The position numbers and the translations under genes were made by a program. From an uncultured Candidatus Saccharibacteria bacterium (lineage in GTDB: Bacteria; Patescibacteriota; Minisyncoccia; Phycocordibacterales; CAIZLB01), in NCBI GenBank assembly GCA_964467385.1, contig CAYXQC010000002.1, positions 1,625 to 65,624 of the forward strand: a stretch of 64,000 nt of DNA. The letters are read 5' to 3'. Position 1 is the first letter of the stretch. Every line of letters starts with the position of its first letter. The notes under the pieces are model-generated. The model searched no databases. It worked only from the letters and a program-made list of their open reading frames with translations, and was not told the origin of the DNA. Shown here piece by piece: positions 13,966 through 47,511 of the stretch.

Positions 13966-14240
13966 GGTTTTAAAATTTAGCGTTTAAAACCTAGAGTGTA
14001 GGAAACAGAAATCCTACCCCTAGGTGACCACGAGGGTCTGCGCCAGTTTCCCGATGCAACGCTGAATAACGTCCTAAGAGTAGGGTTTCTGTTATTCAGC
14101 GATTTTATGACCATACCTAGAGCCGAAGCAGTAGGGTTAGGTCGCCTATTTAGTTGTAGCTATACTTTACTGTATTTTAAGATAATAGTGAAGGATCTTA
14201 ATATACAGAGAAATTTAATATTGGTAATATTTAATTACCA

Positions 14241-31207: not shown

Positions 31208-31292
31208 GGAGGAGTCGCATAGTGGTTTAGTGCACCCGTCTTGAAAACGGGAGTGCCGCAAGGTACCGCGAGTTCGAATCTCGCCTCCTCCG
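31208..31292 (+). tRNA. tRNA-Ser (anticodon TGA), type II
   Basis: GGAGGAG acceptor, anticodon stem CCCGT/ACGGG with loop CTTGAAA, long variable arm, T-arm GCGAG-TTCGAAT-CTCGC, discriminator G. Confidence 0.85.
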
Positions 31293-31365
31293 CATTGACA
31301 ACCTGTTAGTAACGTGTTCTCATGTGCCTGACGTTTCAGTGCGACTCACGTGCCTACATGTTGTA

Positions 31366-31398
31366 CAAAATACCAGCAATTTCGCTGGTATTTTGTTT
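31366..31398 (+). terminator. terminator hairpin downstream of tRNA-Ser
   Basis: aaataccagc-aatttc-gctggtatttt. Confidence 0.55.
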
Positions 31399-31438
31399 GT
31401 ATAAACGATAAAAGCTTTTAAAGCCTAAAAATGATAAG

Positions 31439-33214
31439 ATGCCTATTAATATGGATGGAAAACAAATTTATCAATCAAAATACTCCAATAGTTGGGCACT
31501 AGTTATAGGCATCAATAAATATCATCATGCCTCTCCTTTGGGTTATGCTACCAATGATGCCACAGCCGTAGCTGAAACATTAGAAAAGAAATTCGGTTTT
31601 CCAAAAGAAAACATAACACTCTTGTTGGACGATAATGCGACAAAAGATGAGATTATAAAATCTTTTCTTGAATACACAAATAAAACTAGCTCTGATGATC
31701 GCATATTAGTTTTCTATGCAGGCCACGGACACACACTTCTTGGTAAGCGTGGAGAAGTTGGCTTTCTCGTTCCAGTTGATGGCAGACCAACTGAAATGGA
31801 AAGTTTAATGAGATGGGATGAATTTACCCGAAATGCAGATTTGGTTCCTGCAAAACATATTTTCTTTTTGATGGATGCTTGTTATGGAGGTCTGGCATTT
31901 TTAAGAAGTCCGGCCTTCGGTAATATGCGTTTTCTTGGCGATATGCTCCAGCGTTATGCTCGCCAAGTATTGACCGCAGGTAAAGCTGATGAGACTGTTG
32001 CTGACGGAAATGGCGTCCGTCCTGGACATTCAATTTTTACTGCACACCTACTCGATGCCCTTGAAGGTGCTGCTGCAACTCAAGAAGGAATTATCACCGC
32101 TAACGGTGTCATGGCCTACGTATACGATCGAGTTGGACGGGATGAATACTCTCATCAAACTCCGCATTACGGTTTCATCGAAGGTGATGGTGATTTTATT
32201 TTCGACACCTCAGTTTTGGATAAATTGAGAACTTCTGATACCGAATCATCTTCTGAGGCAAAGGAGGGTGAGAAAGGAGAAAAAGATATTCTTATCAATA
32301 CTTCTCCTGAATTGGTGATTAAAGACAAAGCGGAATCAAAAGTTTCTGTGGCTGAAACGATGAAAGATCTCCTGTCTGATCCATCAAAAAAAATAAAGCT
32401 TGATGATTACGTATCTTTTCATGTTAGAAAATTTTTAGACGCAACCGATCTTCGACATTTTCCTGTTCAAGGCTCAGGGGTACAAAAGGAAGAATTTATT
32501 GAGCGTTTGAATAAATATGAGGAGCTTTCAAAAGATCTTCAGCAGATTGTGATTCTGCTTTCAAAATGGGGCAACAAGGATCAATTGCAGTTGCTTGAAA
32601 AAATATTTACAAGATTGGCGGAGACTGATAAGGGTTCTTCAGGCTTGGTTTTGTGGCTCAACTTCAGCTGGTATCCTATACAACTATTGATGTATTGTGT
32701 GGGAATTGCCGCTCTCGGATCAAAAAATTATGAAGCATTGAAGGTATCATTATTGACCCTTGTTAAAGAAGAAAATTTAGAAAAGCAGGTTCCGATAATC
32801 ATTCCGATGGGAAGCAACATGTCGAGGATTCATGATAGTTTCAAGTGGCTTCCCGGGCATGATCGACATTACGTTCCACGAAGCGAATACCTCTTTAAGG
32901 CTTTACAGCCCGTGATAGAAGATTTATTATTTGTTGGCAAAAGTTACGAAGCTTTATTCGATAAATTCGAGATTATCGTGGCACTTACATATGCAGATGT
33001 TATGAATAGCGATTGGGGTCCTGTCGGTAGATTCGGATGGAAACACAGTAGAGGCTATGGAATAAGTCCAGTCGCAGCTCTCATAGAAGAAGCAAAAAAT
33101 GATAAAGATAATTGGGACCTGTTAAAGGCAGGAATGTTCAATAAGTCCTCATCGAGATTTATTGAAATCGCTGAAAAATATCAAGAGAGATTAAATAAAC
33201 TAGGTTGGTGGTAA
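31439..33214 (+). CDS. caspase-like (peptidase C14) protease fused to ~330-aa uncharacterised C-terminal domain
   Basis: N-terminal ALVIGINKY, a catalytic His in VFYAGHGH (nt ~31724) and a catalytic Cys in LMDACYGG (nt ~31880). The C-terminal half has no recognisable domain. Confidence 0.75.
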   Translation: MPINMDGKQIYQSKYSNSWALVIGINKYHHASPLGYATNDATAVAETLEKKFGFPKENITLLLDDNATKDEIIKSFLEYTNKTSSDDRILVFYAGHGHTLLGKRGEVGFLVPVDGRPTEMESLMRWDEFTRNADLVPAKHIFFLMDACYGGLAFLRSPAFGNMRFLGDMLQRYARQVLTAGKADETVADGNGVRPGHSIFTAHLLDALEGAAATQEGIITANGVMAYVYDRVGRDEYSHQTPHYGFIEGDGDFIFDTSVLDKLRTSDTESSSEAKEGEKGEKDILINTSPELVIKDKAESKVSVAETMKDLLSDPSKKIKLDDYVSFHVRKFLDATDLRHFPVQGSGVQKEEFIERLNKYEELSKDLQQIVILLSKWGNKDQLQLLEKIFTRLAETDKGSSGLVLWLNFSWYPIQLLMYCVGIAALGSKNYEALKVSLLTLVKEENLEKQVPIIIPMGSNMSRIHDSFKWLPGHDRHYVPRSEYLFKALQPVIEDLLFVGKSYEALFDKFEIIVALTYADVMNSDWGPVGRFGWKHSRGYGISPVAALIEEAKNDKDNWDLLKAGMFNKSSSRFIEIAEKYQERLNKLGWW

Positions 33215-33216
33215 GT

Positions 33217-34563
33217 TTATTCATTTTCTTTTTCTTCTTTTAGTAAGGTAATCTTCTTGTCGTTCAGCACGAGCCTTGAGCGCAGATGTCCCATGAGCTC
33301 TCGTTTTTCTATCGCCGTTCCTTCACGTAGCACATACTTGGCATACTCCCTCGTCGCCACTTCATTCTCGTCGATCTTGAACTTCGGACTGCCTTTGCTC
33401 GCAAGTCTCTGCAGTCTGTTGAACTTCTTAATTTCTTCCTCTAGCTTCATCCTCATGCCAAGCTCGTTGATGTTCACGATATCGATCACTTTCAGTAGTT
33501 CCTCGATTAGCTCCTCCTCTCTTACGTATTTATTCTTGCAGTTTCGATCTTTCGACTTCGAGCAGGAGTAGTAGATGTATTTGGCGTTGGTGCCGTCTTT
33601 CAGTTCCTTGTATTTCTCCTGCGCCGTGATGCCCGACTCACACATCCCACAGGTGAAAAGCTTGGTGAAAGCGAACTCTCGGTTTTCTCGCACGATCTTG
33701 TCTCGCTTCAATCGCTCCTGCACTTTCTTGAAGAGTTCCTCGGATATGATCGGCTCGTGCTTTCCGTGGTAGAAGAGTCCACTGTTTCTCGGAAACTCAA
33801 AGATACCGTAGTAGAAGGGATTTTGGAGCGTGCGATATACGCCCGCAAGAGTGAGTGACTTGTTTCCTCTGGTGTAGAAATTCAAATCGAACTTGAGCCA
33901 GTTGTATACCTTTCTTCCGCTCCACTCATCGTATGCTACTTTCTCGAATATCTGCTTCATGATCGGCGCACGATCTGGGTCGACCGCCACTTGGCATTTC
34001 TTGTCGAACTGTTTCTGATTGAGATATCCCAAAGGTGCCATTCCAGGCCAGAGTCCCATCTCCACTCTTGTTCTAAGTCCTCGCTTGACGTTGATGCCTC
34101 GGTTGTCATTCTCCAACTTTGCTTGGCTACACAAAATCATCAGCATGAACTTGTCATTTGGGGAGTTTGTGAATTGCTGACCGTACGTTCGTATGTCCTT
34201 CAGCACGTTCGCATCCATGAGGTCGATCACTTTTCCGAGGTCTCCTGCATTTCTAGATATTCGGTCTGGTGCCCATGTCAGAATCCCATTGAACTTCTTC
34301 TGCTTGATCTCCTCGACGATCTCGTTGAAGACTGGTCGTTGCCCAGTTTCCTTTGCCGAGTGTGATTCTCGCTTCATCGTCACGATCTCCAACCCCTCTC
34401 GTTCGGCAAGTTTCAGCATCTCACTGATCTGGCTGTCGATCGAGAGGACTTGTCGTTCCTCCGATTCCGTTGATTTTCTCGCGTAAAGGCAGTACTTCAC
34501 TGGCACTACCTTTGCCGGAGCCTTTTGGGGCAGCTCCGAAGGCCCTTGTGGTGCTTGATACAT
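33217..34563 (-). CDS. large serine recombinase (integrase), GC-rich
   Basis: Resolvase domain YARKSTESEERQ..SIDSQ, a recombinase domain, and a zinc ribbon (CGMCES...YYSCSK). Its stop is 2 nt from the caspase gene stop. Confidence 0.85.
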   Translation of the reverse strand: MYQAPQGPSELPQKAPAKVVPVKYCLYARKSTESEERQVLSIDSQISEMLKLAEREGLEIVTMKRESHSAKETGQRPVFNEIVEEIKQKKFNGILTWAPDRISRNAGDLGKVIDLMDANVLKDIRTYGQQFTNSPNDKFMLMILCSQAKLENDNRGINVKRGLRTRVEMGLWPGMAPLGYLNQKQFDKKCQVAVDPDRAPIMKQIFEKVAYDEWSGRKVYNWLKFDLNFYTRGNKSLTLAGVYRTLQNPFYYGIFEFPRNSGLFYHGKHEPIISEELFKKVQERLKRDKIVRENREFAFTKLFTCGMCESGITAQEKYKELKDGTNAKYIYYSCSKSKDRNCKNKYVREEELIEELLKVIDIVNINELGMRMKLEEEIKKFNRLQRLASKGSPKFKIDENEVATREYAKYVLREGTAIEKRELMGHLRSRLVLNDKKITLLKEEKENE

Positions 34564-34640
34564 TGGTTTCCTTGTTATTTATCTATTAATCCCTACAAAC
34601 ACAAGGAATGACGCAAGTCGCCGAGGAAGTCTAGGGCGTC

Positions 34641-34976
34641 TCATGTCCTATCTGTTGGCAACTCAAAAGGGTCGAAGGTTGCTATTTCTTTCCTCATTTT
34701 CTCGAAGTCTCTGAAAACCCTGTTGTATATCCTGATCACTTTTCCCTTACGCTTCTTGGTGTCACCACTTTCAAGAAAATCGACGAGATCGTCGTCGATG
34801 AAGGAGGCGAGGGAAATATATGAAGCGACCAGTAATCTGATCCGCTCCTTGATTGCCATCTTTAAATGTAGCTTGGATTCAGGCAGTTTCGACATACGGT
34901 TAAAAGGCGTAGAGCCTGTCGGCTCATGATATTTGAAATGCTTTGAGGCATCTATGATTGCTTCGATGTCGTCCAC
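34641..34976 (-). CDS. small hypothetical protein upstream of recombinase (possible regulator/RDF)
   Basis: 111 aa ORF with elevated GC, co-oriented with the recombinase gene. Confidence 0.35.
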   Translation of the reverse strand: MDDIEAIIDASKHFKYHEPTGSTPFNRMSKLPESKLHLKMAIKERIRLLVASYISLASFIDDDLVDFLESGDTKKRKGKVIRIYNRVFRDFEKMRKEIATFDPFELPTDRT

Positions 34977-35102
34977 CCTTTAATTGATGACGCTGATACC
35001 CGAGGGAGTCTAGCTATTGGTAAGTCGGACTACACAAAAAATCGAATGTAAGCTAGGGTTCAAACAGCTTCGAATAAAGCCATTTTATGTTAAAATCATT
35101 TT

Positions 35103-36083
35103 ATGAATGAAAAAGCTCCAGAAATACTACCGACCATGGAATTACCTAGCATTTTGCCGGAAGAGCAAGCGGAGGAGTATTTAGTTCGAATCACTGATCT
35201 TATCTATAAAGAAAAGTATGGCGGAGAAGCGACGTTTATTTTTGAAAAAGGAATGAATATTCATGCCGACCCTCTTTATCAAGAACATTTGAAATTGGCT
35301 TTGCAAATGGTGGCAACAGCGTCTTTACAGCCAAAAGAAAAGTTTTCTGATGAAAAAAATCAACAGACGTTAGAATCGATTAAAAAAATACTTACTTCCG
35401 CAGCAAATGTATCAATGATAAAAGAGGAAGGAAGAATTTCTTTTGGGCATACCAATACAGAACGGCCATTTTCCGGAAAAACTACAAAAACTGACAATAT
35501 CCCTTATTCTCATTCATTATTCGGTGTGGGAGTTGACTCGCATGAAGCGATAGAATATCTCAAAGGCCTTGTGAAAAATAAAGTAGTGTATCTTTTGGGC
35601 GGGGGCAATTCTGTCCAAGATATTCTCCATTCGGAGGATCTTGCCCCTAAACAGGTGGTGAACATTGATCCCTTTATTGAAGTAGAGCCGATGAGTAAAG
35701 GAAAAAATAATAATTACATTTCAATTGGCACTAATGCTGAGGATCCAGTATCTGTACGCAATGAGCTTAAAAAACATCAAATTGAACAGGCTGATGAAAT
35801 TTGGGCTTCTTATTCTGTACCATATTACCTAAGTACCCCTGAAGAAATTGCTGGCTTGTTTGATACGATAAAGCAATCGCTCGCAGAAAATGGTATTGCA
35901 CGGATCACTCCTATCGCCATGCAGGGCAACGACAAAGAATTATTTGAAAAATCAAAAGAGGAATTCATGAATCAAATACAATCGCTTTTATCGTCTCCTG
36001 AATATAATGTCTATGTAACTTCTAGCACCGCAGGATCAACTTTATTTATTGAAAAGCTGCCTCAAAAAACACATGAAGAATAA
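35103..36083 (+). CDS. hypothetical protein
   Basis: 326 aa ORF whose 3' end overlaps the ATPase gene start. Confidence 0.4.
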   Translation: MNEKAPEILPTMELPSILPEEQAEEYLVRITDLIYKEKYGGEATFIFEKGMNIHADPLYQEHLKLALQMVATASLQPKEKFSDEKNQQTLESIKKILTSAANVSMIKEEGRISFGHTNTERPFSGKTTKTDNIPYSHSLFGVGVDSHEAIEYLKGLVKNKVVYLLGGGNSVQDILHSEDLAPKQVVNIDPFIEVEPMSKGKNNNYISIGTNAEDPVSVRNELKKHQIEQADEIWASYSVPYYLSTPEEIAGLFDTIKQSLAENGIARITPIAMQGNDKELFEKSKEEFMNQIQSLLSSPEYNVYVTSSTAGSTLFIEKLPQKTHEE

Positions 36084-38541
36084 ATATGCGCATTTAAGCA
36101 TCCAAGAAATCCTTACCCATTTAAAAACTCAATTCTCGGGTCTTTCGAGTGAAGATGTTTCTACTAGACTTAAGGAAAAAGGATATAACGAATTGTCTTC
36201 CAAGCGGACGAGTGTCGTGAGGAAATTCATTGAGCAATATTCAAATTTTTTGATGGCACTTCTCATCTGCGGATCCCTCGTCTCCTTCGTCCTCGGAGAA
36301 GCGACTGATGGCACGGTCATCCTACTTATCTTGTTAGTAAACGGAATATTGGGTACCTATCAGGAATATCGAGCTGAGCGATTAGCTGAAGTGCTTCAAT
36401 CACATATACCCCAGAGAGTACGAGTAAGAAGGAACGGGGCTGAGGAAACAATAGACAGAAAGAATCTGGTATACGGAGACGTTATTCTTCTTACAAGCGG
36501 ACAGCTAGTACCAGCGGATGCGTGCGTTATCGATACTAAAGGAGTAATTGTTGATGAGTCTATCCTGACAGGGGAATCAATTGGGGTTTCGAAAGAGCTT
36601 AAAGGAATTGTATACAGCAGTACTCTTGTATGTGACGGAGCATGTGAAGCCGTAGTGACTGCTACTGCTTCCGAGACCGAGTTTGGGCAGATCGTTTCTT
36701 TCACTCATCATTCAAAAAAGAGAAGTTCTTTCTTGAAGCAGATCAATGAGCTTTCCAATTTCCTTTTTAAGATTACGATATTTATCACCGCACTTTTGTT
36801 CATTGCGCTTGAGATCTTTCGTCCCGAATTAGGCATCAATCATATCTTTCTTTTTACGGTTGCTATGGCTATTGCCATCGTGCCTGAGATGCTTCCACTT
36901 ATCTCAACACTTGCTCTTACACGTGCATCCCTAGCTTTGGTTAAAAAAGGAGTGCTCATCAAAAGATTGTCTTCGCTTGAGGATATGGGAGGGGTGGAAA
37001 TCATATGCACCGACAAGACAGGAACACTCACCAAGAACCTACTTTCGGTAACTGATATCGTTTCTGCTGACTCTGAAAGATGTTTGGCAGCGGCCCTTGT
37101 CGCTTCGGAGGAAATTCAAAACACTGAGACATTCTTTTCTGGATCATTTGATGTGGCGCTGTGGAATTATGCTACCGAAAGCCTGCAGCAAAAAGCGAGA
37201 GAAATGAAAAAGATATTCAGCAGTTCATTTGATTTTAACTATAAATGGCGTTTTACTGTCTCTTCTAATGACAATCATAATATTCGCTTGTTCATCAAAG
37301 GTGCTCCAGAGAGCGTCCTTAGTCAATGTCTCGTTTCAGAAGATGATAAAAAGAAGCACTTGGAGGATATAAAAAGATTAGGTGAACGAGGTCTTAGAAC
37401 CTTGGTGATAGCGGAGAAAAAAATTGAAGTGAAGGAAGAATATACTAGTGCGGAGGTATCAGGCTTAGAATATCTCGGCTATGTTGTTTTCGAGGATCCA
37501 GTAAAAGAAAGTGCCTCTATCACTCTTGCACGATCGGAAGAGTTGGGCCTTAAGATTAAAATTATTACTGGGGATGCTTCGGAAGTTGCCCTTCATGTTG
37601 CTGAAAAAGTAGGCATGAAAGTATTATCTGAGGAAATAATGCTTGGTTCTGATGTCGAAGAGATTGAGGAATCCAGAAGATACGATGCCTTGAAGCATAT
37701 AAAGATATTCGCGCGGGTAAGTCCCAAGGAAAAATTTGAGATCATCAGGGTTCTTTCGCTACATCATGCCGTCCTTTTCCTGGGGGAAGGGGTGAATGAT
37801 GCGCCAGCGCTTAAAAGCGCGGATGTAGGAATGGTCGTTCAGGAGGCTTCGGATATCGCAAAAGAAAGTGCTGATATTATTCTTACCAAACCTGATCTTT
37901 CTGTAGTTATCGAAGCAATCTATCTTGGAAGACAAATCATGAATAATATTAGCAAGTACATCCTCATTACCCTGACGGGAAATTTCGGTAGTCTTTATTC
38001 TCTTTCTCTCATATCGATCGTTTCAAAAACATTACCTCTTTTACCAACTCAAGTTTTGCTTGAAAACATTCTGACTGATGTCCCTATGATAAGCACCGTT
38101 AACTCTCCCATTTCAAAAAGTGAAGAAAGCAAGCCTGTGCGTCAGCATATAAAGGATATCTGTATTGCATCATCAATCTTCGGATTTGCTATTCTTCTTA
38201 TCCAATTTGTCTTCTATAATCTATTTTCACATTTGCCTGAGGATCTTTTCAGAACTATTTGGCTCATAGAGATCATCCTATTTGAATTCATGCTTATTGT
38301 CTCACTTCGGACTACTTTCTGGTTTTGGAAAGCACCTCCCCTCAGACCTGGGACGAGTGTCTTCTTTTTATTTGTTGTAGCGTTCACGGTCTTAATGCCT
38401 TTCATTCCTTACATAAACAACGCATTTCATCTACAGCCATTCGGGTTTGAATACGTATTTCCAATCGTGGCAACCATCATCTCTGGATTTATCATTATTG
38501 AAATAATGAAAAGAATGGTATTCGCAAAATCACTTCGTTGA
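36049..38541 (+). CDS. cation-transporting P-type ATPase (P2-like); true start probably ATG 36073
   Basis: Cation_ATPase_N at the N-terminus, then ICTDKTGTLT, TGDASEVA and GEGVNDAPAL, plus TM helices. Confidence 0.85.
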   Translation: MKSCLKKHMKNKYAHLSIQEILTHLKTQFSGLSSEDVSTRLKEKGYNELSSKRTSVVRKFIEQYSNFLMALLICGSLVSFVLGEATDGTVILLILLVNGILGTYQEYRAERLAEVLQSHIPQRVRVRRNGAEETIDRKNLVYGDVILLTSGQLVPADACVIDTKGVIVDESILTGESIGVSKELKGIVYSSTLVCDGACEAVVTATASETEFGQIVSFTHHSKKRSSFLKQINELSNFLFKITIFITALLFIALEIFRPELGINHIFLFTVAMAIAIVPEMLPLISTLALTRASLALVKKGVLIKRLSSLEDMGGVEIICTDKTGTLTKNLLSVTDIVSADSERCLAAALVASEEIQNTETFFSGSFDVALWNYATESLQQKAREMKKIFSSSFDFNYKWRFTVSSNDNHNIRLFIKGAPESVLSQCLVSEDDKKKHLEDIKRLGERGLRTLVIAEKKIEVKEEYTSAEVSGLEYLGYVVFEDPVKESASITLARSEELGLKIKIITGDASEVALHVAEKVGMKVLSEEIMLGSDVEEIEESRRYDALKHIKIFARVSPKEKFEIIRVLSLHHAVLFLGEGVNDAPALKSADVGMVVQEASDIAKESADIILTKPDLSVVIEAIYLGRQIMNNISKYILITLTGNFGSLYSLSLISIVSKTLPLLPTQVLLENILTDVPMISTVNSPISKSEESKPVRQHIKDICIASSIFGFAILLIQFVFYNLFSHLPEDLFRTIWLIEIILFEFMLIVSLRTTFWFWKAPPLRPGTSVFFLFVVAFTVLMPFIPYINNAFHLQPFGFEYVFPIVATIISGFIIIEIMKRMVFAKSLR

Positions 38542-38616
38542 CTTTCGTCCCGCCAAAGTGTTTTATGTTCATAATAATTAAATTATAAGCTTAATTTTGC
38601 TACAATACTCTATATT

Positions 38617-39894
38617 ATGGAAAAACAGCCTCTTAGCGGATCAGAGCAAAAAATTCAAGAATATGTCGCCAGAATTAAGGGTGGTGAGTCGAAAGATTCA
38701 ATCCTGCAAGGTTTACCGCCTTCCTTTGTTGCTGGTATTGAAGCAGGTATTAATGAATCAGAAAGTACTACGGAATCGAAAACGGAGAAGGTTGACATGA
38801 GTGAACAAAAAGACGAACCTTCTGTTCCGCCACAGTATGAAGGTTTGGATGCTGATACCCTTGATTTCATTTGGACTATTCCTGAATACATAGATACCGA
38901 AAAAACCAAGCGGGAAAAAGACAGAAAACAAAAAATTATAGATACTCTCAGAAAAAAAGAATTGGGCGGAACAGAAATACAGGAAAAAAAACTTGTCGAT
39001 GAAGTAAAAGTGGAACAGATCCGAAAAGACCTTGGTATTGGTTCTGATGAAGCATTAGTGTCAAAACAGCAAGAGCTTGCCGCGATTCAAAATAATGAAG
39101 GAGAGGAAAATCATCTTATCTCTGGTTTAGTAAAACTTGTCTCTCAAGGAAGAAAGCAAGCTGTCATAGATTTGTATAAAAATCTTTTTGATAATATCGA
39201 TGATCCAGATTCTCGCAAAAAACTAGCCTCTGGATTATTTCAAGATGTCTACAATAGATACAGAATTGCAGAATACCCAACTGACCCAGTCGAAGAGCAG
39301 ACATGGGAGGATGCACTCAAAAGCACAAAAGTGGGTATAAATAACAAGAAAAGTGAATGGATGTATCGTGGGGTTTTTCCGAAAAATGGTGAGGAGACTA
39401 CCACTCGCGGATCGTTCAATGTTAATGTCACACCTGAATTAATTGATAGTCTCGATGATATGATCGCGAGCGGAAAGATAAAAGCAAATTATAAATTTGG
39501 ACAACCTGGAACAACCGCATCGCCAACAGAACGGCACGACTCGATCAGTATTTATTTCCTAGAACAGCCGAGCGACGAAGCACTTCAAGAATTAGCGACA
39601 ACAATAAAGCCATATGTCCGTGGCGACAATCTGCTTGGTAAGAAAATAGAAGATGGATTTTTCATGTCAGAGGTTGGTTCTGTAGAAACTGAACACATAG
39701 AATCTTTTATCGAGGAACTAAAATCAAAAGATCCCGCTTTTGCCGAAGCGGTGAAAGGATACACCTCACCGCAACCAGGAAGAGGTAATTCACTTAAGAT
39801 GTCAGAAGCTCAATTCTATGCTGTTAAAGATGTCGCTCGGGCTTTTGGATACGGCATTTCTTACGACAAAGATAAAGGATTTCAGATTTCTTAA
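38617..39894 (+). CDS. hypothetical protein
   Basis: 425 aa ORF with no recognised domain. Confidence 0.45.
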   Translation: MEKQPLSGSEQKIQEYVARIKGGESKDSILQGLPPSFVAGIEAGINESESTTESKTEKVDMSEQKDEPSVPPQYEGLDADTLDFIWTIPEYIDTEKTKREKDRKQKIIDTLRKKELGGTEIQEKKLVDEVKVEQIRKDLGIGSDEALVSKQQELAAIQNNEGEENHLISGLVKLVSQGRKQAVIDLYKNLFDNIDDPDSRKKLASGLFQDVYNRYRIAEYPTDPVEEQTWEDALKSTKVGINNKKSEWMYRGVFPKNGEETTTRGSFNVNVTPELIDSLDDMIASGKIKANYKFGQPGTTASPTERHDSISIYFLEQPSDEALQELATTIKPYVRGDNLLGKKIEDGFFMSEVGSVETEHIESFIEELKSKDPAFAEAVKGYTSPQPGRGNSLKMSEAQFYAVKDVARAFGYGISYDKDKGFQIS

Positions 39895-39907
39895 TGAATA
39901 ATTTTCT

Positions 39908-40438
39908 TTGCCTACAACGACAGAAGATCAAAATTACGTATATCACGGCTCGCCAGTAAGATCGTTTGAAGTCGTCACTCCGAAACGAAACAAGCGAGTT
40001 CAGATATCCAACAAGACAGGCGAACACGAAGTCATTTTCGATGACATTTCTTTCCATGCCACTCCGTACAAATGGATCGGCATCGCATATACCTATCATT
40101 CAAAACCATACGAAATCGATGGCAAGCAAGCCCATTACAATATGGGAGTGAGTCTCTATGTTCACGAGAAAAAGCTCACCATTTATGGTTTTGAATCCTT
40201 GGAAAAAAGTCTGGAAAAACTCTATGGCGACGGAGGATATCTATACGTATTCGACAAGAAAGATTTTTTCCATACGAAAGGGTTAGGAAATCTTGAGGTC
40301 ATCACTAAAGAAGCCATCAAGCCCGTTTCAATTGAAAGGATTACTGATCCAGTCAAAAAGCTCAAAGAATTAGGAGTAGAGTTTGAATTTATTGATTTAT
40401 CCAAACCTGAGAATGAAAGGGACAGAAATTATTATTAA
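39908..40438 (+). CDS. hypothetical protein
   Basis: 176 aa ORF. Confidence 0.4.
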   Translation: MPTTTEDQNYVYHGSPVRSFEVVTPKRNKRVQISNKTGEHEVIFDDISFHATPYKWIGIAYTYHSKPYEIDGKQAHYNMGVSLYVHEKKLTIYGFESLEKSLEKLYGDGGYLYVFDKKDFFHTKGLGNLEVITKEAIKPVSIERITDPVKKLKELGVEFEFIDLSKPENERDRNYY

Positions 40439-40443
40439 CTCTT

Positions 40444-42579
40444 TCAATAAATCCCGATATCTCGGTACTGTGAAGGCTCGTCGTAATAAGGATCTAAGAA
40501 GTCATCCTCAAATTGTCTCCTGTCAGACATCTTCTTCACTTCTTTCACCATTGTCATCGCAAGCGCACTCGGAATGGAAGAATCAGTGCCGTAATCTGCA
40601 AGAGTTTCTCTGTCGATGATCTTCATCTTGTTTCCACTCTCTGCCCATACGATCGATAGAAGGTCATCGAATATCGGCCTGCCGAATAGCTTGCCACCTC
40701 TTCGGAGCCAATCAGCTAATTTCGCATAGCTTCGTGTGTAATTGTCCGTGTAAAGATTTGAGTCAAACTGCGGTGATTCGTTCATATCAATTCCATACCT
40801 CTGACGATCCACATATTTACCTATGAGAAAATGACCTGGGGCAAACTGTCGCAACAGCTTGCATAATTCCTGTCCTCTGTCGCCTTTGTCCACGAAGATA
40901 TTTGTATCCGATATTGGTACGTCATAGACGTGCGCTAACTCGATGATCTTCATTGCCACTTTCGCCGTATCTTCAGTTGGTTCGTGATACACAACCTCGG
41001 CTGCATTGTCTGATCGAAGCACTATTGTCGAGTGAGTCATGTTTCTTCCCGCTAGAACTACGCCGAATCTTTTGTCACCGACATGAGAAATCTTCTCGTG
41101 GTAGCTGTCGTTCAGTAACCGCTCCTCGAAGAGGGAGTGATGGCCTTTGATCACCTTCGAGTCCTGCTCAACGATACTGAGTACGAGGATGCAGAACGCA
41201 TCACAGAGGTCATCGTGACTTTCTGTGCCGAATCCTGTGAGCTGTGACATCAATTTCTCCGCACCGACTTCAGGAAACACCACCGTACCTGCTTGTATGT
41301 GTCCTGATGCCAAGGCGAGCCTCGCTCGTTTGTCCGTTCCGTGCAGTTTCCATTCCTTTGCGGGGAATCCGTCTGATACTAGCTGATCGACCAATGATTT
41401 CTGGTATGCCACAGTCTCTATCCACATTCCAGTCGGAATGCCGTTACCGAGCCCATTTGATACCGACTTAATCCTCTCGATGCTTTTTGGAAAGTCCATC
41501 CTCTCATTCACTGGATTGGCCATGATATATATCTTCAAGGATTTTCTTCTGCCATGTACTCTCCCCGATACCATTGCTGTATAGTCCGCCGTATCTTTTT
41601 CAGAGATAGCAGGATCTACTCCACTTGCTGCATATCTGAATGTCTCCACGGGAGGAAGAACTTTGTATGTCTGTATCCATTCAGGTCTGACAACCTGATC
41701 ATCATCGGCGATAATCTGCAACATATACTCGCGTTGCCATGCTTGAGAACTCGGCACCGACTTACGGAAAGTATCAATTTCCGTTTGAGTGGAAAACTTT
41801 TCAGGCCATAATGATTTACCGTCTGTGTCGAGGAACGGATATGCACGAGTGGTACCCGGCATCTCATTCTTAAATATTGCTGTCTTTAACTTCATGATAA
41901 GTGACTCGTTGTGGAGCTTGGTACCGATGACTATGAGACGGGTATCTATGTCTCCCAACGGCATAATATCTCCTGTCAGCCAGTCAAACATTTTCTTCCT
42001 GCTTTCTGCCGTTTTTACGATATCCAAATCTTCCAAGTCGTCGCAGATGATGAGGTCGGGGCGGTGGGGTCCGTGCTTGATTCCTCTAATCGAGTTATCT
42101 ATCGAAGCAACCGTGATTCGTGCGCCATAATTTGGAAGGACGATTGAGACAGCACGCCATTCGTCATTTGGTTCCTCGAACGGTCCGAGGTCAGCCTTAA
42201 GGAGTTTGTTTGACTCAAGCTCTATCTTGATATTTGCAAGATATTGTTTTGCCTGACTTTCTGTCTTGGCGATGATGAGGACGAATTTCTTTTGTTGTAC
42301 CCCGAGAATCGACCAGATGGAATACGAGGTACCCATGATGGTGGTCTTGCTTGATCCTCGGAATGCTTCGACTACGACATTCTTCTGCGTCGTATCCTCC
42401 GTCAACTCGAATAATTCCTTCTGGAAAGGCGCGCTCTTGTATTTCATGTAATGGGTGAAATATATCTGAAAGAACCAGTAGTGACATTCTCGGGTCAGAT
42501 TGCTGCGGGTAACTTGGTCTTTGATGATTCTGTTCAGTTCTTCGGGTTCTATGTCTTGATTATGATTGTGTATAGTCAT
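40444..42579 (-). CDS. phage terminase large subunit-like protein with ~230-aa C-terminal extension
   Basis: Walker A AFRGSSKTT and Walker B LIICDDLED, then an RNase-H-like nuclease region (ESHDDLCDAF), then extra C-terminal sequence. Confidence 0.6.
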   Translation of the reverse strand: MTIHNHNQDIEPEELNRIIKDQVTRSNLTRECHYWFFQIYFTHYMKYKSAPFQKELFELTEDTTQKNVVVEAFRGSSKTTIMGTSYSIWSILGVQQKKFVLIIAKTESQAKQYLANIKIELESNKLLKADLGPFEEPNDEWRAVSIVLPNYGARITVASIDNSIRGIKHGPHRPDLIICDDLEDLDIVKTAESRKKMFDWLTGDIMPLGDIDTRLIVIGTKLHNESLIMKLKTAIFKNEMPGTTRAYPFLDTDGKSLWPEKFSTQTEIDTFRKSVPSSQAWQREYMLQIIADDDQVVRPEWIQTYKVLPPVETFRYAASGVDPAISEKDTADYTAMVSGRVHGRRKSLKIYIMANPVNERMDFPKSIERIKSVSNGLGNGIPTGMWIETVAYQKSLVDQLVSDGFPAKEWKLHGTDKRARLALASGHIQAGTVVFPEVGAEKLMSQLTGFGTESHDDLCDAFCILVLSIVEQDSKVIKGHHSLFEERLLNDSYHEKISHVGDKRFGVVLAGRNMTHSTIVLRSDNAAEVVYHEPTEDTAKVAMKIIELAHVYDVPISDTNIFVDKGDRGQELCKLLRQFAPGHFLIGKYVDRQRYGIDMNESPQFDSNLYTDNYTRSYAKLADWLRRGGKLFGRPIFDDLLSIVWAESGNKMKIIDRETLADYGTDSSIPSALAMTMVKEVKKMSDRRQFEDDFLDPYYDEPSQYRDIGIY

Positions 42580-43003
42580 TTTCGTTTTCTGTTATTGGTT
42601 CTTGTAATACTGTTGTTTCCTGTATGCCGAGCACCTTTCGTATGAGTGCCTCCTGCTCGAGAGTCATAGGATCTTCCTTCTCGATCGTCGCCCTCACATC
42701 AAGCCTGTTGCTGTAGTCAGGGTGGTGCTGGCGGAGCCAGAGCTGAATTGCAGGGAAATTCTTTTCCTTAATCAAAGTAATGAGCTGGCTTTCGCTCAAG
42801 TCATTGATGAGTTCCACGCCATCTTTCATCGCTTCATCGGAATTCTTCTTGAATTCGGCATCGTCCTGCCTCCACCTGTAGTAGGTACTCTTGCCGACAT
42901 TACATCTGTCGCAGACAAGCTGAATAATCGGCGTTTTCTTCAACTGCTCGATAATCAATTTCTTGTCAGTATCTATTCTTTTTTGTGTGTTTTCATTGGT
43001 CAT
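42560..43003 (-). CDS. phage terminase small subunit-like HTH protein
   Basis: CDRCNVGKSTYYRWRQDD HTH; its 3' end overlaps the TerL start. Confidence 0.5.
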   Translation of the reverse strand: MTNENTQKRIDTDKKLIIEQLKKTPIIQLVCDRCNVGKSTYYRWRQDDAEFKKNSDEAMKDGVELINDLSESQLITLIKEKNFPAIQLWLRQHHPDYSNRLDVRATIEKEDPMTLEQEALIRKVLGIQETTVLQEPITENENDYTQS

Positions 43004-43279
43004 ATTTTTGAGTTTTCCACAGTTAGCTTGTAATACTAGGTTTCTCTTTCTTTCTCTTAGTTTTGTGTGTTAACTTACTTAACCAGTTTCGGTAAAGTAG
43101 GTTTACTGCTTTCGGTTAACTTGCTTTACCACCCCTCTCAGTTATCCACAGCCCGCGCATCACTTTTTCCTAAGACTTTGTTTCTCTTTGTTTCCTAGAT
43201 TTTGTGTGTCTACCTAGTAGACCACTATTGGTCTAGGAAATAGACTACTTCTGGTCTACTAAGTAGACTGGTCTATCTG
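43004..43279. repeat. repeat-rich non-coding region: two ~30-bp direct repeats (gtttctcttt..ttttgtgtgt) and an array of TAGACC..GGTCTA palindromes
   Basis: Direct copies at ~43027..43058 and ~43178..43210. Palindromes include tagaccactattggtcta, tagactacttctggtcta and tagactggtcta. Confidence 0.6.
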
Positions 43280-44041
43280 CTAGACTAGTTTTTCCACAGC
43301 CTTGCCAGTCAGTTTCTCCCATCGACTTATTGCCGTCTGTACATACTCAGGATCAAGCTCGATTGCGATGCAGATACGCTTGGTCTGCTCACAGGCTAGG
43401 AGACATGTTCCCGAGCCGAGGAAGGCATCGTAGACCGTGTCGCCAATGCGGGTGCTGTTGAGGATGAGATGACGAAGGAGCGGCACAGGTTTGGTCGTCG
43501 GATGGAAAGGGCTTTTGCTCGGCTTCGGATGGACGATGACGCTCTTGTCCTTCGATTTCAGGAATTCGTGAGTTCCATGCCAACCATATGCGATTAACTC
43601 GTGCATCGGGGCATAGTCCATTCTTCCGACGACAGCTTGTGTCTTTACCCAGACAATGAGTTGAGCGAATTTGCATCCGATACTTTTCATTCCATCACGA
43701 AGAGCGAATATCATCTTGTCCGAGTTGAAGATGTACAGGGCATTTTTCTTTTCAAGATGTGGTGTGACCACACCAAGCCAGTCTTCAGTGAACTTTTTGT
43801 ATTCCTCGTCGCTTTGCAAGTGATCATTCTCGATTTTCTTGTCCTTAAGCAATGCTTTGAAATTCTGTTTGCTCTCAGCGACCGCCACGCCATATGGAGG
43901 ATCGGAAATGATCGCCTTGATTTTTCTCTTGCCGATTACTTTCGCCACGAATTCCTTGTCCCTCGAATCGCCACAGGCAATCGTATGTTCGCCAAGCTGA
44001 AAAACATCGCCGACCTTAATTGAGTTTGGTGACTTTTTCAT
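43280..44041 (-). CDS. DNA methyltransferase (N6-adenine/N4-cytosine, DPPY motif)
   Basis: ISDPPYGV (motif IV) plus a C-terminal FLGSGTCLLA (motif I). Confidence 0.8.
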   Translation of the reverse strand: MKKSPNSIKVGDVFQLGEHTIACGDSRDKEFVAKVIGKRKIKAIISDPPYGVAVAESKQNFKALLKDKKIENDHLQSDEEYKKFTEDWLGVVTPHLEKKNALYIFNSDKMIFALRDGMKSIGCKFAQLIVWVKTQAVVGRMDYAPMHELIAYGWHGTHEFLKSKDKSVIVHPKPSKSPFHPTTKPVPLLRHLILNSTRIGDTVYDAFLGSGTCLLACEQTKRICIAIELDPEYVQTAISRWEKLTGKAVEKLV

Positions 44042-45434
44042 TTGGAGAGAGTTGCTTAAAGCGGTTGATAATGAGCTGGCAGAATATTGGCTCTATCTCG
44101 CAGAGATATGCGGTGCGTTTCAGCTGTTCACAGGCAGACAAGATACTTCCTGATCCTGCGGTCAGATCAAGAACAATGTCATTAGGCTTTGAGCATCTTC
44201 GCAATGCTTTCTCGTGCAAAGTCGGTGGCTTCTGCGTTGGGTGAGCATATTCTTGTGATGGCAATCTTTTGACCAACCAGATATTGAGCATGTCCATGAT
44301 GTCCTCGGTGAGACGATTGCCCGTGGTCATCTCTTTGTTCAGAATCTCATGCAGGTTTTTTACCTTGTCAGAAAGGTATGGTTTACCTCTTGTTCCGTAC
44401 ACGCAGTACTCGGTCACTTTGTTGAAAGCGATATTAGGAGTGGGATTCGCTGTGGACTTTACCCATAGGCATAATCTCTTTGAATCGATATCGAGTTCTT
44501 TGTAGAGTTCTTGGAGAAGATACACATACCGTTCGTCGCACCAGAAGAAAACATGTATATCAAGCTTTGAAACTGACAGCGCATTTTGCATCAGCGTTTT
44601 TAAGAATGTCCGGTACTCGTTTTCGCTTTTGCTATCATCGGTCGTACCACCATACCTTGCTTTGTTGCCGACGCCTTTGCTGTAATCGAGAGAAATATTG
44701 TAGGGCGGATCCGTATCTACCATATCCGCAAGCTTTCCGTTCATTATTTTTTTCACCACCTCGGGATCAAGCGAACTTCCGCATATCAATCGATGTCTTC
44801 CTAGAGAAAAGTAGTCTCCAGTCTTGATATCGGTTTCCTTAATCTTCTCCAATTCCTTTTCCTCGTCGAAGTTGTCATCGGTCACTTCAAGATTGTCGTC
44901 GAAGATATTGGTGAGGTCTGCGGAGTCGAATCCTGCCGTGAGCAGGGTGTCGATATCAAAATCACTCGCCAATATCTCCCAATCCCACGATCCGCCCGAG
45001 CGGTTACTTGTGAGAAGGTATTGTTTGAACTCACTTGGCGTGAGTTTGCGATTCGGGGTTCTGACTTCGATTTCTTCTTCGCCTCGGCCAAGAAGCTGTA
45101 AAGCTTTGATACGTTGATGGCCTGCCGCGATTTTTCCATCAAGATTTATTGCAGGCAACTCAGCAAGATTGAATTTCTTGAGGCTTTCTTTTAAATCTTC
45201 CATTTGTTTGTCTGTGATCTTACGGGGGTTCTTCTCGTATGGAAGCAGATCATTGACTCGGCGCTTTTCGGTGCGCCATACTAGTGGTTGTAGTTTTGAC
45301 ATTGTTATTATTGCTAAATTGATAATGGTCGCAGTATGTACTGCGTGTTGTGCACAAGTATGGGAATTACTTTTGCACAGGCTAATCGTAATGGCAGAAA
45401 AAAGTAAAACAGGGTGGATTACTTTTTCTCCCAT
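44016..45434 (-). CDS. ParB-like nuclease domain-DNA methyltransferase fusion
   Basis: ParB N-domain, then DTDPPYNISL, then LDLTAGSGSIL. The true start is probably the internal MSKLQPLVW. Confidence 0.8.
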   Translation of the reverse strand: MGEKVIHPVLLFSAITISLCKSNSHTCAQHAVHTATIINLAIITMSKLQPLVWRTEKRRVNDLLPYEKNPRKITDKQMEDLKESLKKFNLAELPAINLDGKIAAGHQRIKALQLLGRGEEEIEVRTPNRKLTPSEFKQYLLTSNRSGGSWDWEILASDFDIDTLLTAGFDSADLTNIFDDNLEVTDDNFDEEKELEKIKETDIKTGDYFSLGRHRLICGSSLDPEVVKKIMNGKLADMVDTDPPYNISLDYSKGVGNKARYGGTTDDSKSENEYRTFLKTLMQNALSVSKLDIHVFFWCDERYVYLLQELYKELDIDSKRLCLWVKSTANPTPNIAFNKVTEYCVYGTRGKPYLSDKVKNLHEILNKEMTTGNRLTEDIMDMLNIWLVKRLPSQEYAHPTQKPPTLHEKALRRCSKPNDIVLDLTAGSGSILSACEQLKRTAYLCEIEPIFCQLIINRFKQLSPNEKVTKLN

Positions 45435-45900
45435 GACTTAAGGGTAATTCCCGAAAAGTGATTTTCCTGTTGCATTACTTTTGCCTTGCACAATGGTACT
45501 CGCTTAAAATCGCAAAAAGGTGTGCATTACTTTTGCTACTCAGAATCGTATGCTGGCCAACGCATCCAATTAGTGGGTATTGAAAATGCTACTGGATATA
45601 AAATGTGAAAAACACTGTGCAATCAAATCGTAGCGGACCCGAATAGTTCTGTCTGGAGGAATTACCTGGCCGAGAATAGATATTGAAATTAGTCCAGAAA
45701 TACGGGATCAGGTATGAAAAAGTAAATGAGACACCGTATTTTGAAGTGTCCCATTTACTATTTTCCATTTCTACCCTTATTTTACTTGGTCTTTTTGCTC
45801 CTCACTTTTCAAAATACCCCTATTTGGGATACCCCGTATATGTGTCTCAAATGTCCCATTTGCAAGAAGTCAGACCGTGACTCACAAGCCTCAAACGGCC
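45350..45900. repeat. iteron-like repeat cluster (4x GNATTACTTTTGC; 2x CCGTAT..TGTCCCATTT) in non-coding DNA
   Basis: Copies at ~45372, ~45416, ~45473 and ~45527; tgtcccattt at ~45738 and ~45850. Confidence 0.55.
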
Positions 45901-46441
45901 GAGTCGGAATATGCTAAAATACCCTTACAAGGCCTCAAGGTGTGGGTACCGTACCCACGACGCCCGCACGGTTGTACACACAAACACAAGTAAAGACCCG
46001 CCGAAAGGTGTGTTTTTGTTTTGGGTTTTTAATTGCAAAGATATAAAATACTTAATTGACTTTTAGTTGTAGTCCATATCTCCCTATGCTACAGTCTTGA
46101 TATCTCAGTCAACCCGCCACACTGCTATCCAATGAAAAAGTTCAAAAAATTGATAACAAGACTCATTCTCGGGCGCTCGATCATTCGTCGGATACGAACA
46201 AATCGAAAACTGCGACATCAATACAAACATGCTGTTGCCAATAAAACAATGCGCATCAGTATCAAACGCCAAGGAGTGACCATCTCCGCTCGCGTCCATC
46301 ACTTCTCGGATCTCCTGAGTATTCAACACATCCTCAAGGTGGCCCGAGAGAATTATCGAGCAATCAAAAGGCTTCGCGCTACGCGCAAATGGATACTCGC
46401 TTAGGGCTCATGCCAACGAACAGCTTCAGTGTCCTACTCAC

Positions 46442-46474
46442 AAACCGCAGGTCCACCCCGCCTGCGGTTTTTTT
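46442..46474 (+). terminator. rho-independent terminator
   Basis: aaaccgcagg-tccacccc-gcctgcggttttttt. Confidence 0.65.
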
Positions 46475-46573
46475 ATTTACCCCTGCTCAAATTCTCCAAA
46501 GGGAGTACTATTAGTATGTATGAAACAGGCCACAATCTGTTTTTGCTTAAAAAATAACCCGATCCTTCTTGGA

Positions 46574-46999
46574 ATGAAGAAGGTTAATTTTGGTACTAGC
46601 AAGTGGAATGGGTACGGAGGCAAAGTTGGAGACGAGGTGCCAGGATAAACCCCGAGAGCTGCGGCCGTTCGAGAACTCAAAGAAGAATGCGGCCTTACAG
46701 CTACTGAAAAAGATATGACGCATGTAGCAATTGTGCGTTTCTATTTTGAGGACAAACCGATCTTTGAATGCTTCGTCTACACGTGCAACAACTGGCAAGG
46801 TGAACCAGTTGAAACAGATGAGATGAGACCAGAATGGTTTCCACTCGAACAAATTCCATACGAACACATGTGGGATGCAGATAAAAGGTGGCTGCCGATG
46901 ATTTTGAAAGGAGAAACTTTTGAGGCGACAGTTGTATTTAATGCTGACGGATCTGCGTTGAAAAAATTTGAATCAAAGCCTGTGATTTTTGAGAGATAA
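46574..46999 (+). pseudogene. MTH1/NUDT1-like NUDIX hydrolase pseudogene (N-terminally truncated, in-frame TAA at 46636..46638 inside the Nudix box)
   Basis: Reads MKKVNFGTSKWNGYGGKVGDEVPG*TPRAAAVRELKEECGL ... ETDEMRPEWFPLEQIPYEHMWDADKRWLPMIL. Confidence 0.6.
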
Positions 47000-47106
47000 T
47001 GACAAAACCGGACACCCTTCACAAATATTTATACCCATTGTACCATTCTTTTAACCTTGGATAGCCCAGGGTAGTTCAAATCCAACAGAACCAATCTATT
47101 GAGCCC

Positions 47107-47349
47107 ATGAAAACATTGCTTCTTCTTGTTGTGGCAATTCTCGCCACTACCCCATCCTGCTCGTACCAGTACGTTCCACCAACCCAAACGGCGGTGGATA
47201 CCTACGAGGCAAAGATCAAGTCTGGCCATCAAGCACTCGCCCCGCACGGTCACCTGTATCAGACAAATCAATCTACTGATCTGGTCAGCTACAGCAGCCC
47301 CGACCATCGCACCGAAAACATTGGAGCGCTCGTTACCATCCGGCGATAA
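47107..47349 (+). CDS. small secreted/lipoprotein-like protein (GC-rich)
   Basis: Signal peptide MKTLLLLVVAILATTPSC, with a terminator at 47379..47412. Confidence 0.4.
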   Translation: MKTLLLLVVAILATTPSCSYQYVPPTQTAVDTYEAKIKSGHQALAPHGHLYQTNQSTDLVSYSSPDHRTENIGALVTIRR

Positions 47350-47378
47350 CAAGTCGTCATCGAATCAAAAACACCCAC

Positions 47379-47412
47379 GGCCAGAGGTTCATCCCTCTGG
47401 CTTGTTTTTTAT
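47379..47412 (+). terminator. rho-independent terminator
   Basis: ggccagagg-ttcatcc-ctctggc followed by a T-run. Confidence 0.65.
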
Positions 47413-47511
47413 TTATTTTTAAAAAATCGCAACTTTTTCAAACTCTTTTGCCAAGCATTCACAGAGTGTTTTCGTACCATTTAGTCAAATGTATGCTAAA
47501 ATATTTTCAAC

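Follow-up and report, generated by a model that had tools for sequence, protein, structure and literature searches.

A metacaspase-like protease fused to a PDC-S65-type helical domain beside a serine integrase in a Candidatus Saccharibacteria genome: a candidate single-polypeptide sensor-effector of a bacterial conflict system

What is the function of a caspase-like protease gene that lies between a tRNA-Ser gene and the gene of a large serine recombinase in the genome of an uncultured Candidatus Saccharibacteria bacterium? The gene was found in a stretch of 64,000 nucleotides (assembly GCA_964467385.1, contig CAYXQC010000002.1, positions 1,625 to 65,624 of the forward strand), referred to here as the window and numbered from its first letter. 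It encodes a protease domain of metacaspase type and an all-alpha C-terminal domain (C-domain) in one polypeptide. The reading favoured here, with a probability of roughly 0.55, is that this fusion protein is a single-polypeptide sensor-effector of a bacterial conflict system, most likely of anti-phage abortive infection. The fusion gene and its left flank comprise the following features:

31208..31293, + strand: intact tRNA-Ser gene, anticodon UGA (ARAGORN; Rfam tRNA, 60.6 bits)
31370..31397, + strand: hairpin ATACCAGC/GCTGGTAT, followed by a T-run, between the tRNA-Ser gene and the caspase gene (read from the sequence)
31439..33214, + strand: caspase/C-domain fusion gene, an open reading frame (ORF) of 591 amino acids (ORF list)
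31487..32206, + strand: metacaspase-like Peptidase_C14 domain, residues ~17-256 (Pfam, PDB sequence matches, Foldseek)
32222..32338, + strand: interdomain linker, disordered, acidic and Lys-rich, residues ~262-300 (predicted local distance difference test (pLDDT), identity)
32339..33211, + strand: C-terminal domain, all-alpha, of the PDC-S65 type, residues ~301-591

The N-terminal half is a caspase-type protease, as a preliminary description of this DNA had already supposed. Pfam Peptidase_C14 (PF00656) matches residues 19-241 (E=4.7e-18; 66 bits, with the cutoff at 21.4) and is the sole Pfam domain match of the protein, a CHAT domain (PF12770) not being among the hits. The catalytic dyad of His96 (AGHGH) and Cys148 (DACYGG) is invariant in 42 of 42 aligned homologues, as are Asp40 and Asp146, and the His/Cys motifs are kept in 40 of 41 more distant caspase fusions. 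The best PDB sequence matches are eukaryotic metacaspases, namely MC4 and MC9 of Arabidopsis, Yca1 of yeast and MCA2 of Trypanosoma. The GHG of the query aligns with the metacaspase SGHG and its DAC with DSC (DSCHSG); in the AtMC4 alignment Asn39-Asp40 falls on the metacaspase VND and Asp146-Ala147-Cys148 on DSC. Foldseek searches with the full-length model retrieved metacaspases, the MALT1 paracaspase and the Geobacter orthocaspase-like protein GSU0716 with probability 1.0, all matches being confined to the N-terminal half. Judged from its sequence, the protease is catalytically intact and under constraint. Asp40 and Asp146 align with what we take to be, from published metacaspase structures, the acidic positions of the S1 pocket, so that the protease would most likely cleave behind Arg or Lys. 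The best NCBIfam match, 'caspase, EACC1-associated type' (NF047832), scored 78.3 bits, below its cutoff of 140 bits, and no CRISPR-associated context was seen in the window.

The C-domain proved less anonymous than thought in the preliminary description, which could assign it to no family. PDC-S65 profiles of PADLOC-DB v2.0.0 match residues 304-590 (PDLC05061, E=7.4e-45; PDLC05060, E=1.7e-33), with the aligned part covering positions 307-591 of 592 and 214-503 of 503, that is the last ~285 positions of each profile. The N-terminal 210-306 profile positions were matched by none of the caspase, TIR, kinase, ParA-like or standalone architectures discussed below, and PDC-S65 as modelled thus has a different N-terminal domain. 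The 'PDC' systems of PADLOC are 145 predicted phage defence candidates, selected by guilt-by-embedding in BREX, DISARM and type I restriction-modification loci, and PDC-S65 is, to judge from its name, one of these. The name 'PDC-S65' was not found in the papers and supplements searched, and the DefensePredictor paper does not mention caspases. The view that the module is undescribed must be given up as well: PADLOC would already flag the protein as PDC-S65, and the full-length protein is annotated as 'caspase family protein'. The modular picture of the C-domain developed here and its phage-like carrier in Patescibacteria were not found in the literature searched.

No housekeeping family matches the C-domain, and among 48 diverse members no consistent Pfam family was found. 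A PDB profile search with the domain gave a best E of 0.24, a chance match, and its fold similarity is that of a generic alpha-solenoid only; a sequence relation or specific fold relation to any characterised sensor was not found. An AlphaFold model built with 48 standalone homologues has a pLDDT of 95.5 and a predicted template modelling score (pTM) of 0.93 and contains about 17 helices and one small hairpin. By this model the C-domain is an autonomous, well-folded module. It is also predicted to be soluble: the maximum 19-residue Kyte-Doolittle score of 1.33 is below the transmembrane threshold, the hydropathy peak is a conserved hydrophobic central helix (residues 403-427), and a 19-residue hydropathy of 1.6 is reached by 6 of the 48 homologues. 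Residues kept in fused and standalone C-domains alike include Lys309, Arg356, Tyr360, Trp377, Trp411-Tyr412-Pro413, Ser482, Asp508, Glu511, Gly530-Arg531 and Lys535. The linker that joins the two domains has a pLDDT below 50-60 in the full-length model and is hypervariable, with a mean pairwise identity of 22 %, the caspase domain reaching 66 % and the C-domain 48 %.

An indication of what the C-domain does comes from the enzymes that accompany it. A HMMER search with residues 260-591 against 1.84 billion cluster representatives yielded 1,791 proteins, the best 150 of which were divided into classes. Complete caspase fusions account for 41 of these 150 and N-terminally truncated caspase fusions for 13, while 86 are of standalone size (about 290-345 amino acids, starting at the domain boundary) and 10 carry other N-termini. 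The latter fall into three groups, in which C-domains were found behind Ser/Thr protein kinases (P0122, P0170 and P0181, matching the PADLOC PD-T4-6 and mad6 models), a ThsB-type TIR domain (P0195; PADLOC ThsB, 5e-65) and ParA/MinD-like nucleoside triphosphatases (NTPases; P0162 and P0267, PDC-M28B). Standalone C-domain genes also occur beside separate effector genes. In two loci such a gene lies directly downstream of a 310-amino-acid TIR gene, in the same orientation and with a gap of 78 nt (L099, 3991-5897; L100, 1044-2950). In another it follows, with a 4-nt overlap and in the same orientation, a gene for a Shedu SduA_C nuclease of 373 amino acids (L101, 123-2131), and in a further one it follows, again in the same orientation, a gene for DUF2188 (L005, 521-1655), which is listed among putative TIR-associated effectors in a recent preprint. 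These four pairs are candidate two-gene versions of the system. The common rule is one toxic enzyme plus the C-domain, fused or split. Such a recurrent pairing is what one expects if the C-domain is a fixed regulatory or sensory part whose outputs can be exchanged. Its behaviour as such a module of conflict systems agrees with the sensor-like C-terminal half proposed earlier. The wider idea that it is an unrecognised universal switch or sensor with at least five outputs and no characterised fold relative, defining a new immune superfamily of one- and two-gene systems whose caspase version was spread in Patescibacteria by a serine-integrase element, is put forward tentatively, its chances being somewhat short of even.

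In the mechanism proposed for the fusion protein, the N-terminal metacaspase-like protease would be the output, and the all-alpha C-domain of ~290 residues would be both input and switch, holding the protease inactive. The C-domain would bind a cue of infection; candidates are a small ligand, a protein of the phage or a host factor that has been perturbed. Binding would activate the protease, probably via oligomerisation of the caspase domains. Broad cleavage of cellular and/or phage proteins after basic residues could then lead to arrest or death of the infected cell. Carried by a temperate element, the gene would serve both element and host in superinfection exclusion or defence.

The distribution of the family was studied with the full-length protein, for which at least 1,848 matching proteins were found. 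The top 120 homologues share 50-74 % identity and are about 580-590 amino acids long. When one genome per species (~185,600) was scanned by pattern, relatives turned up in at least 183 genomes, scattered over Patescibacteria, Alpha-, Beta-, Gamma- and Deltaproteobacteria, Acidobacteriota, Planctomycetota, Chloroflexota, Bacillota and others, with cross-phylum identities of 43-74 %. Defence genes that move horizontally typically show such a patchy distribution. Three viral contigs in IMG/VR carry a homologue; no full-length homologue was found in the isolated phage genomes of INPHARED. The 1.3-Mb chromid of Pseudoalteromonas piscicida harbours a full-length homologue (NZ_CP074588.1, 507115-508851; 46 % identity, 99 % coverage). 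The PLSDB gene table is incomplete and lists no gene at this position.

Does the fusion protein need a partner? All-versus-all clustering of the ORFs of 87 loci revealed no neighbour cluster present in more than 11 of them; the largest comprises tyrosine integrases, located within 9 kb in 11 of the 87 loci. Pfam analysis of 124 immediate upstream and downstream genes showed no family more than three times, with TIR, gasdermin, trypsin-like and NTPase families all absent from the recurrent ones; general scans of the window gave no gasdermin either. Since no neighbour is conserved and the gaps and orientations to neighbours differ between loci, the caspase fusion appears to work alone. The preliminary description had called the protease standalone, which is supported by the lack of a conserved partner at 83 non-redundant homologue loci; the conserved neighbours that it suggested looking for (gasdermins, trypsin-like proteins, NTPases) did not recur, and gasdermin, TIR, trypsin and NTPase partners were all rejected on these grounds. 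The serine recombinase was likewise rejected as a family-wide companion, having a clear match at a single homologue locus (L010) and a weak one at another (L042), and so was adjacency to a tRNA gene, found within 2 kb in 4 loci only. The closest non-identical homologue (74 % identity; L001, 12308-15650) is followed by RVT_1 reverse transcriptase and AAA_5 (McrB-like) genes, in what may be a small defence cluster.

How the gene came to its present place is a question of the surrounding DNA. The tRNA-Ser gene ends 145 nt before the ATG of the fusion ORF. In public assemblies a 100 %-identical protein starts at Met5 and has 587 amino acids, and Met5, at 31451, is the likely true start. The hairpin in between has a perfect 8-bp stem and is probably the terminator of the tRNA-Ser gene, although the consensus scan did not call it; with a terminator at this position, a separate promoter of the caspase gene would have to lie in the ~45 nt that remain. 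On the right the stop codon of the fusion gene ends at 33214 and that of the recombinase gene occupies 33217-33219 on the other strand, so that the stops are 2 nt apart. The features to the right of the fusion gene are:

33217..34563, - strand: large serine recombinase of 448 amino acids, phage-type integrase (Pfam, PHROG, GC3)
34641..34976, - strand: ORF of 111 amino acids, upstream of the recombinase (ORF list; GC3 0.54)
35103..40438, + strand: variable slot with orf326, a P-type cation ATPase gene, orf425 and orf176 (ORFs; GC3 0.31-0.41)
40444..45434, - strand: second block of foreign GC content with TerL-like, HTH_Tnp_1_2 and two N6_N4 methylase genes (Pfam, GC3)

The recombinase carries the Pfam domains Resolvase, Recombinase and Zn_ribbon_recom, all above cutoff, and matches the PHROG integrase family phrog_95 (E=1.9e-65). 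Its GC content is 48.1 % and its GC content at third codon positions (GC3) is 0.62, compared to a host background of 0.31 +/- 0.06 derived from fifteen long host ORFs. Foreign composition in this first block is limited to the recombinase gene and the 111-amino-acid ORF, which is called at 72-84 amino acids in public assemblies, has no Pfam, PADLOC, NCBIfam or PHROG match and might, as a guess, be a regulator or directionality factor. The second block, at 40444-45434, has a GC content of 44-48 % and a GC3 of 0.48-0.57. It encodes a TerL-like protein of 711 amino acids, an HTH_Tnp_1_2 protein of small-terminase type (147 amino acids) and two N6_N4 methylases of 253 and 472 amino acids. Homology of the larger methylase ORF (44016-45434, - strand) to that of locus L010 begins at residue 38-48 and its first 44 residues look non-genic; translation probably starts at Met45 (45302), giving a protein of 428 amino acids.

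That both blocks belong together is indicated by two Minisyncoccia contigs, L009 and L010, in which a caspase homologue with 59 % identity is flanked by methylase, HTH and Terminase_6C genes. Identities between the window and these contigs are 48 % for the methylase, 40 % for the HTH protein and 47 % for the TerL-like protein; the recombinase is 66 % identical to that of L010, and the L009 contig shows none. The same circular order is found, in which the recombinase is followed by the caspase, encoded on the other strand, then by the methylase(s), the HTH and TerL-like genes and a variable slot on the opposite strand. This slot holds a DUF4352 gene in L010 and orf326, the P-type ATPase gene, orf425 and orf176 in the window. 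The slot genes of the window (35103-40438) resemble the host in GC content and have no homologues in L009 or L010, and three of the four belong to no Pfam or PHROGs family. The ATPase gene encodes 822 amino acids in the near-identical locus L087, with Cation_ATPase_N, E1-E2_ATPase, Hydrolase, Cation_ATPase and Cation_ATPase_C domains. The slot genes may be cargo of the element or chromosomal genes trapped by rearrangement. Among more than 90 loci, TerL, methylase and recombinase matches were found in L009 and L010 only. The window thus probably contains a phage- or satellite-like element of ~14 kb, reaching from the tRNA-Ser gene to about 45.4 kb and opened between the caspase and methylase promoters, and the balance of the evidence tips slightly towards the caspase gene being accessory cargo beside its integrase.

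The left end of this element can be compared with a metagenomic relative, L093 (PilM 66 % identical), which keeps the order PilM, tRNA_bind, RuvX, tRNA-Ser. There the tRNA-Ser gene is directly followed by a gene for a membrane protein of 428 amino acids without counterpart in the window, so that synteny stops at the tRNA-Ser gene, a probable insertion hotspot. Exact-protein look-ups with RuvX and the methylase retrieved nothing on record showing an empty site or circular junction, and look-ups with the caspase and recombinase found other assemblies of the same organism with the same arrangement only. In the preliminary description the region 31208-35030 (3.8 kb) had been proposed as a small integrative element with a recombinase of foreign GC content, convergent with the caspase gene and close to the tRNA-Ser gene. 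The recombinase, its composition, the convergent arrangement and a serine-integrase element at the tRNA gene all stand; the proposed extent probably does not, the 3.8 kb being in all likelihood part of the ~14 kb that run to 45.4 kb.

On the right side 45303-47511, ~2.2 kb, holds no intact ORF of more than 107 amino acids in an otherwise densely coding genome. No Rfam match and no tandem repeat was found in it, and the stretch may consist of decayed DNA where the element ends on the right. A NUDIX/MutT-like gene (46520-46999, + strand) has a single in-frame stop at 46646-46648 inside the NUDIX box (GGKVGDEVPG*TPRAAAVRELKEECG); it may be a pseudogene, a sequencing error or a readthrough site. 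Elsewhere in the window, at 14026-14143 (- strand), a match to the Rfam LOOT RNA (RF03000) scores 63.5 bits against a gathering score of 46.4.

Several findings weigh against a defence function or against carriage by a mobile element. Many homologues adjoin housekeeping genes, for example the rpsF-ssb-rpsR-efp cluster and gyrA. The window is not a defence island: apart from the caspase protein, PADLOC matches in it are limited to methylases, a PolA-like protein and, weakly, DolB. The PDC systems are, according to their authors, predicted candidates only. The full-length model has a pTM of 0.56 and the interdomain geometry is not confidently predicted. The caspase gene has a host-like composition (GC 39.4 %, GC3 0.32), different from that of the core of the element, whose composition as a whole is mosaic. 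No direct or inverted repeats that could serve as attachment (att) sites were found within 30.9-36.5 kb, and no repeat of more than 11 nt is common to the tRNA side and 45.4-48.1 kb. Since very short att cores suffice for serine integrases, the missing repeat is uninformative. No capsid, portal or tail genes were identified in the element, and its mobility and the cargo status of the caspase gene can consequently only be inferred. The C-domain is, finally, fairly conserved (48 %), with Asp508, Glu511 and Arg531 invariant. This conservation and these invariant charges fit a conserved ligand-binding or catalytic site better than a fast-evolving receptor of phage proteins, and suggest, as far as residue conservation can tell, that the cue may be either a conserved ligand or a host factor being guarded, in preference to a phage-protein surface that changes quickly.

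A ligand-binding C-domain leads to the question whether the protein is a signal receptor comparable to those of Thoeris. The C-domain would then bind a second messenger, such as a TIR-derived ADP-ribose (ADPR) derivative, whose producer would be either a protein from another locus or, in split systems, the TIR partner, and the caspase fusion would be a stand-alone effector listening for this signal as in type IV Thoeris. The standalone C-domain genes directly behind TIR genes, the one behind the gene for DUF2188 as a putative TIR-associated effector, and the invariant charged and aromatic residues that suggest a pocket are consistent with this. However, TIR does not recur as a family in the 124 genes immediately next to caspase fusions, nor is it among the families listed (25 of 32) for the other 67 ORFs of the window, and a C-domain fused in cis to a ThsB-type TIR domain, or paired with a kinase, nuclease or ParA-like NTPase, is not expected of a dedicated receptor of TIR signals. 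A signal receptor is therefore considered unlikely. Even less probable is that the C-domain itself is the toxin, for instance a membrane-active helical bundle, freed as a death effector by a cut in the linker in the manner of EACC1, Pepco and MBL. Effectors unleashed by proteases are documented, the disordered, hypervariable and Lys-rich linker would suit a cut of metacaspase type, and the central helix of residues 403-427 is conserved and hydrophobic. Yet TIR, kinase, Shedu nuclease and ParA-like NTPase partners could not license a toxin by cleavage, the hydropathy (maximum 1.33; 1.6 in 6 of 48 homologues) stays below the transmembrane threshold, and the NCBIfam model for EACC1-associated caspases scores below cutoff.

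The gene may also work for the element alone, in addiction or post-segregational killing, in the processing of element proteins or in degradation of host defence proteins. In the window as well as in L009 and L010 it lies among integrase, terminase-like and methylase genes, its position between integrase and probable att site is the typical accessory place known from prophage biology, and the three viral contigs with homologues point the same way. Most homologues, on the other hand, have no element genes nearby (L009 and L010 being the only such loci among more than 90), the full-length protein occurs in no INPHARED isolated phage genome, and the effectors partnering the C-domain (TIR, Shedu nuclease, PD-T4-6-type kinase) belong to the host defence repertoire. 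Such a selfish or counter-defence role is rather unlikely. Least probable of all is that the protein is a plain orthocaspase or metacaspase of the cell, with a regulatory part in housekeeping or development, and that it lies beside the recombinase by coincidence. This reading would explain GC and GC3 values indistinguishable from those of the host, the homologues among core genes (rpsF-ssb-rpsR-efp, gyrA) and an annotation that says only 'caspase family protein', but is difficult to reconcile with the rarity of the gene (at least 183 of ~185,600 species genomes by pattern scan), with 43-74 % identity across phyla, with the lack of a conserved neighbourhood, with a C-domain common to defence-type effectors and with the absence of the gene at the syntenic site of L093, which has the same left flank. 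A single-polypeptide sensor-effector of a conflict system thus remains the preferred reading.

As such the protein can be compared with several known systems. PDC-S65, a single-gene candidate, is matched by the C-terminal ~285 residues of the protein, and the fusion gene studied here is likewise a single unit, without conserved partner; the modelled N-terminal half of PDC-S65 is different from the caspase half. Among single-chain effector-sensors, the DSR2 SIR2-sensor, the PD-T4-6 kinase and Avs without NTPase combine an N-terminal toxic enzyme with a C-terminal helical or repeat sensor and have swappable effectors. The logic is the same here, the likeness being one of architecture alone, and no STAND NTPase is present; kinase-fused relatives of the C-domain match the PD-T4-6 models directly. 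Metacaspases and orthocaspases (MEROPS C14B) share the fold, the His/Cys dyad, the DxC motif and, putatively, the N-terminal S1 Asp, whereas the protein in the window has neither the p20/p10 linker architecture of type II metacaspases nor an N-terminal prodomain, and fusion to a PDC-S65-type domain sets this bacterial family apart from all of them. The caspase-like effector found in type IV Thoeris (ThsD/ThsE) cleaves after Arg, as is predicted here from the acidic S1 residues. That system needs an adjacent TIR gene making N7-cADPR (Rousset et al., Science 2025). The fusion gene has no TIR gene beside it, its neighbours being tRNA-Ser and RuvX to the left and the recombinase to the right, and none recurs at the homologues; the caspase domain is moreover closest to eukaryotic metacaspases in the PDB. 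With the EACC1, Pepco and MBL modules and the gasdermin-activating proteases the protein would have in common a caspase-like protease in a conflict system. In the EACC1, Pepco, MBL and alpha/beta-hydrolase modules a separate small effector gene lies beside a sensor-fused protease (Evans et al. bioRxiv 2025). In contrast to those and to the gasdermin systems, the caspase fusion has no adjacent effector or conserved small gene, and its attached domain also accompanies non-proteases. The putative carrier resembles temperate phages and satellites with large serine integrases in its integrase, tRNA position, TerL- and TerS-like genes, methylases and accessory gene located between integrase and chromosome junction, and differs from them in its mosaic composition and in that capsid, portal and tail genes and att repeats were not identified.

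The interest of this locus lies more in the C-domain than in the caspase. Provided that the C-domain does act as sensor or switch, it would be a new input module of bacterial immunity, without a characterised fold relative, that controls a death protease of eukaryotic type, and the fusion would offer a compact system for the study of caspase-type licensing in which neither adaptor NTPases nor second messengers take part. The family has many members and a wide taxonomic spread, and its proteobacterial and Bacillota homologues would lend themselves to trials in model hosts. The surroundings of the gene also bear on the movement of defence genes in minimal genomes, in that a probable phage-like element of Patescibacteria here has both a serine integrase and such a gene. 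Should the C-domain turn out to be the universal switch tentatively suggested above, it would open a way to the immunity and mobile elements of the ultra-small and poorly known Patescibacteria.

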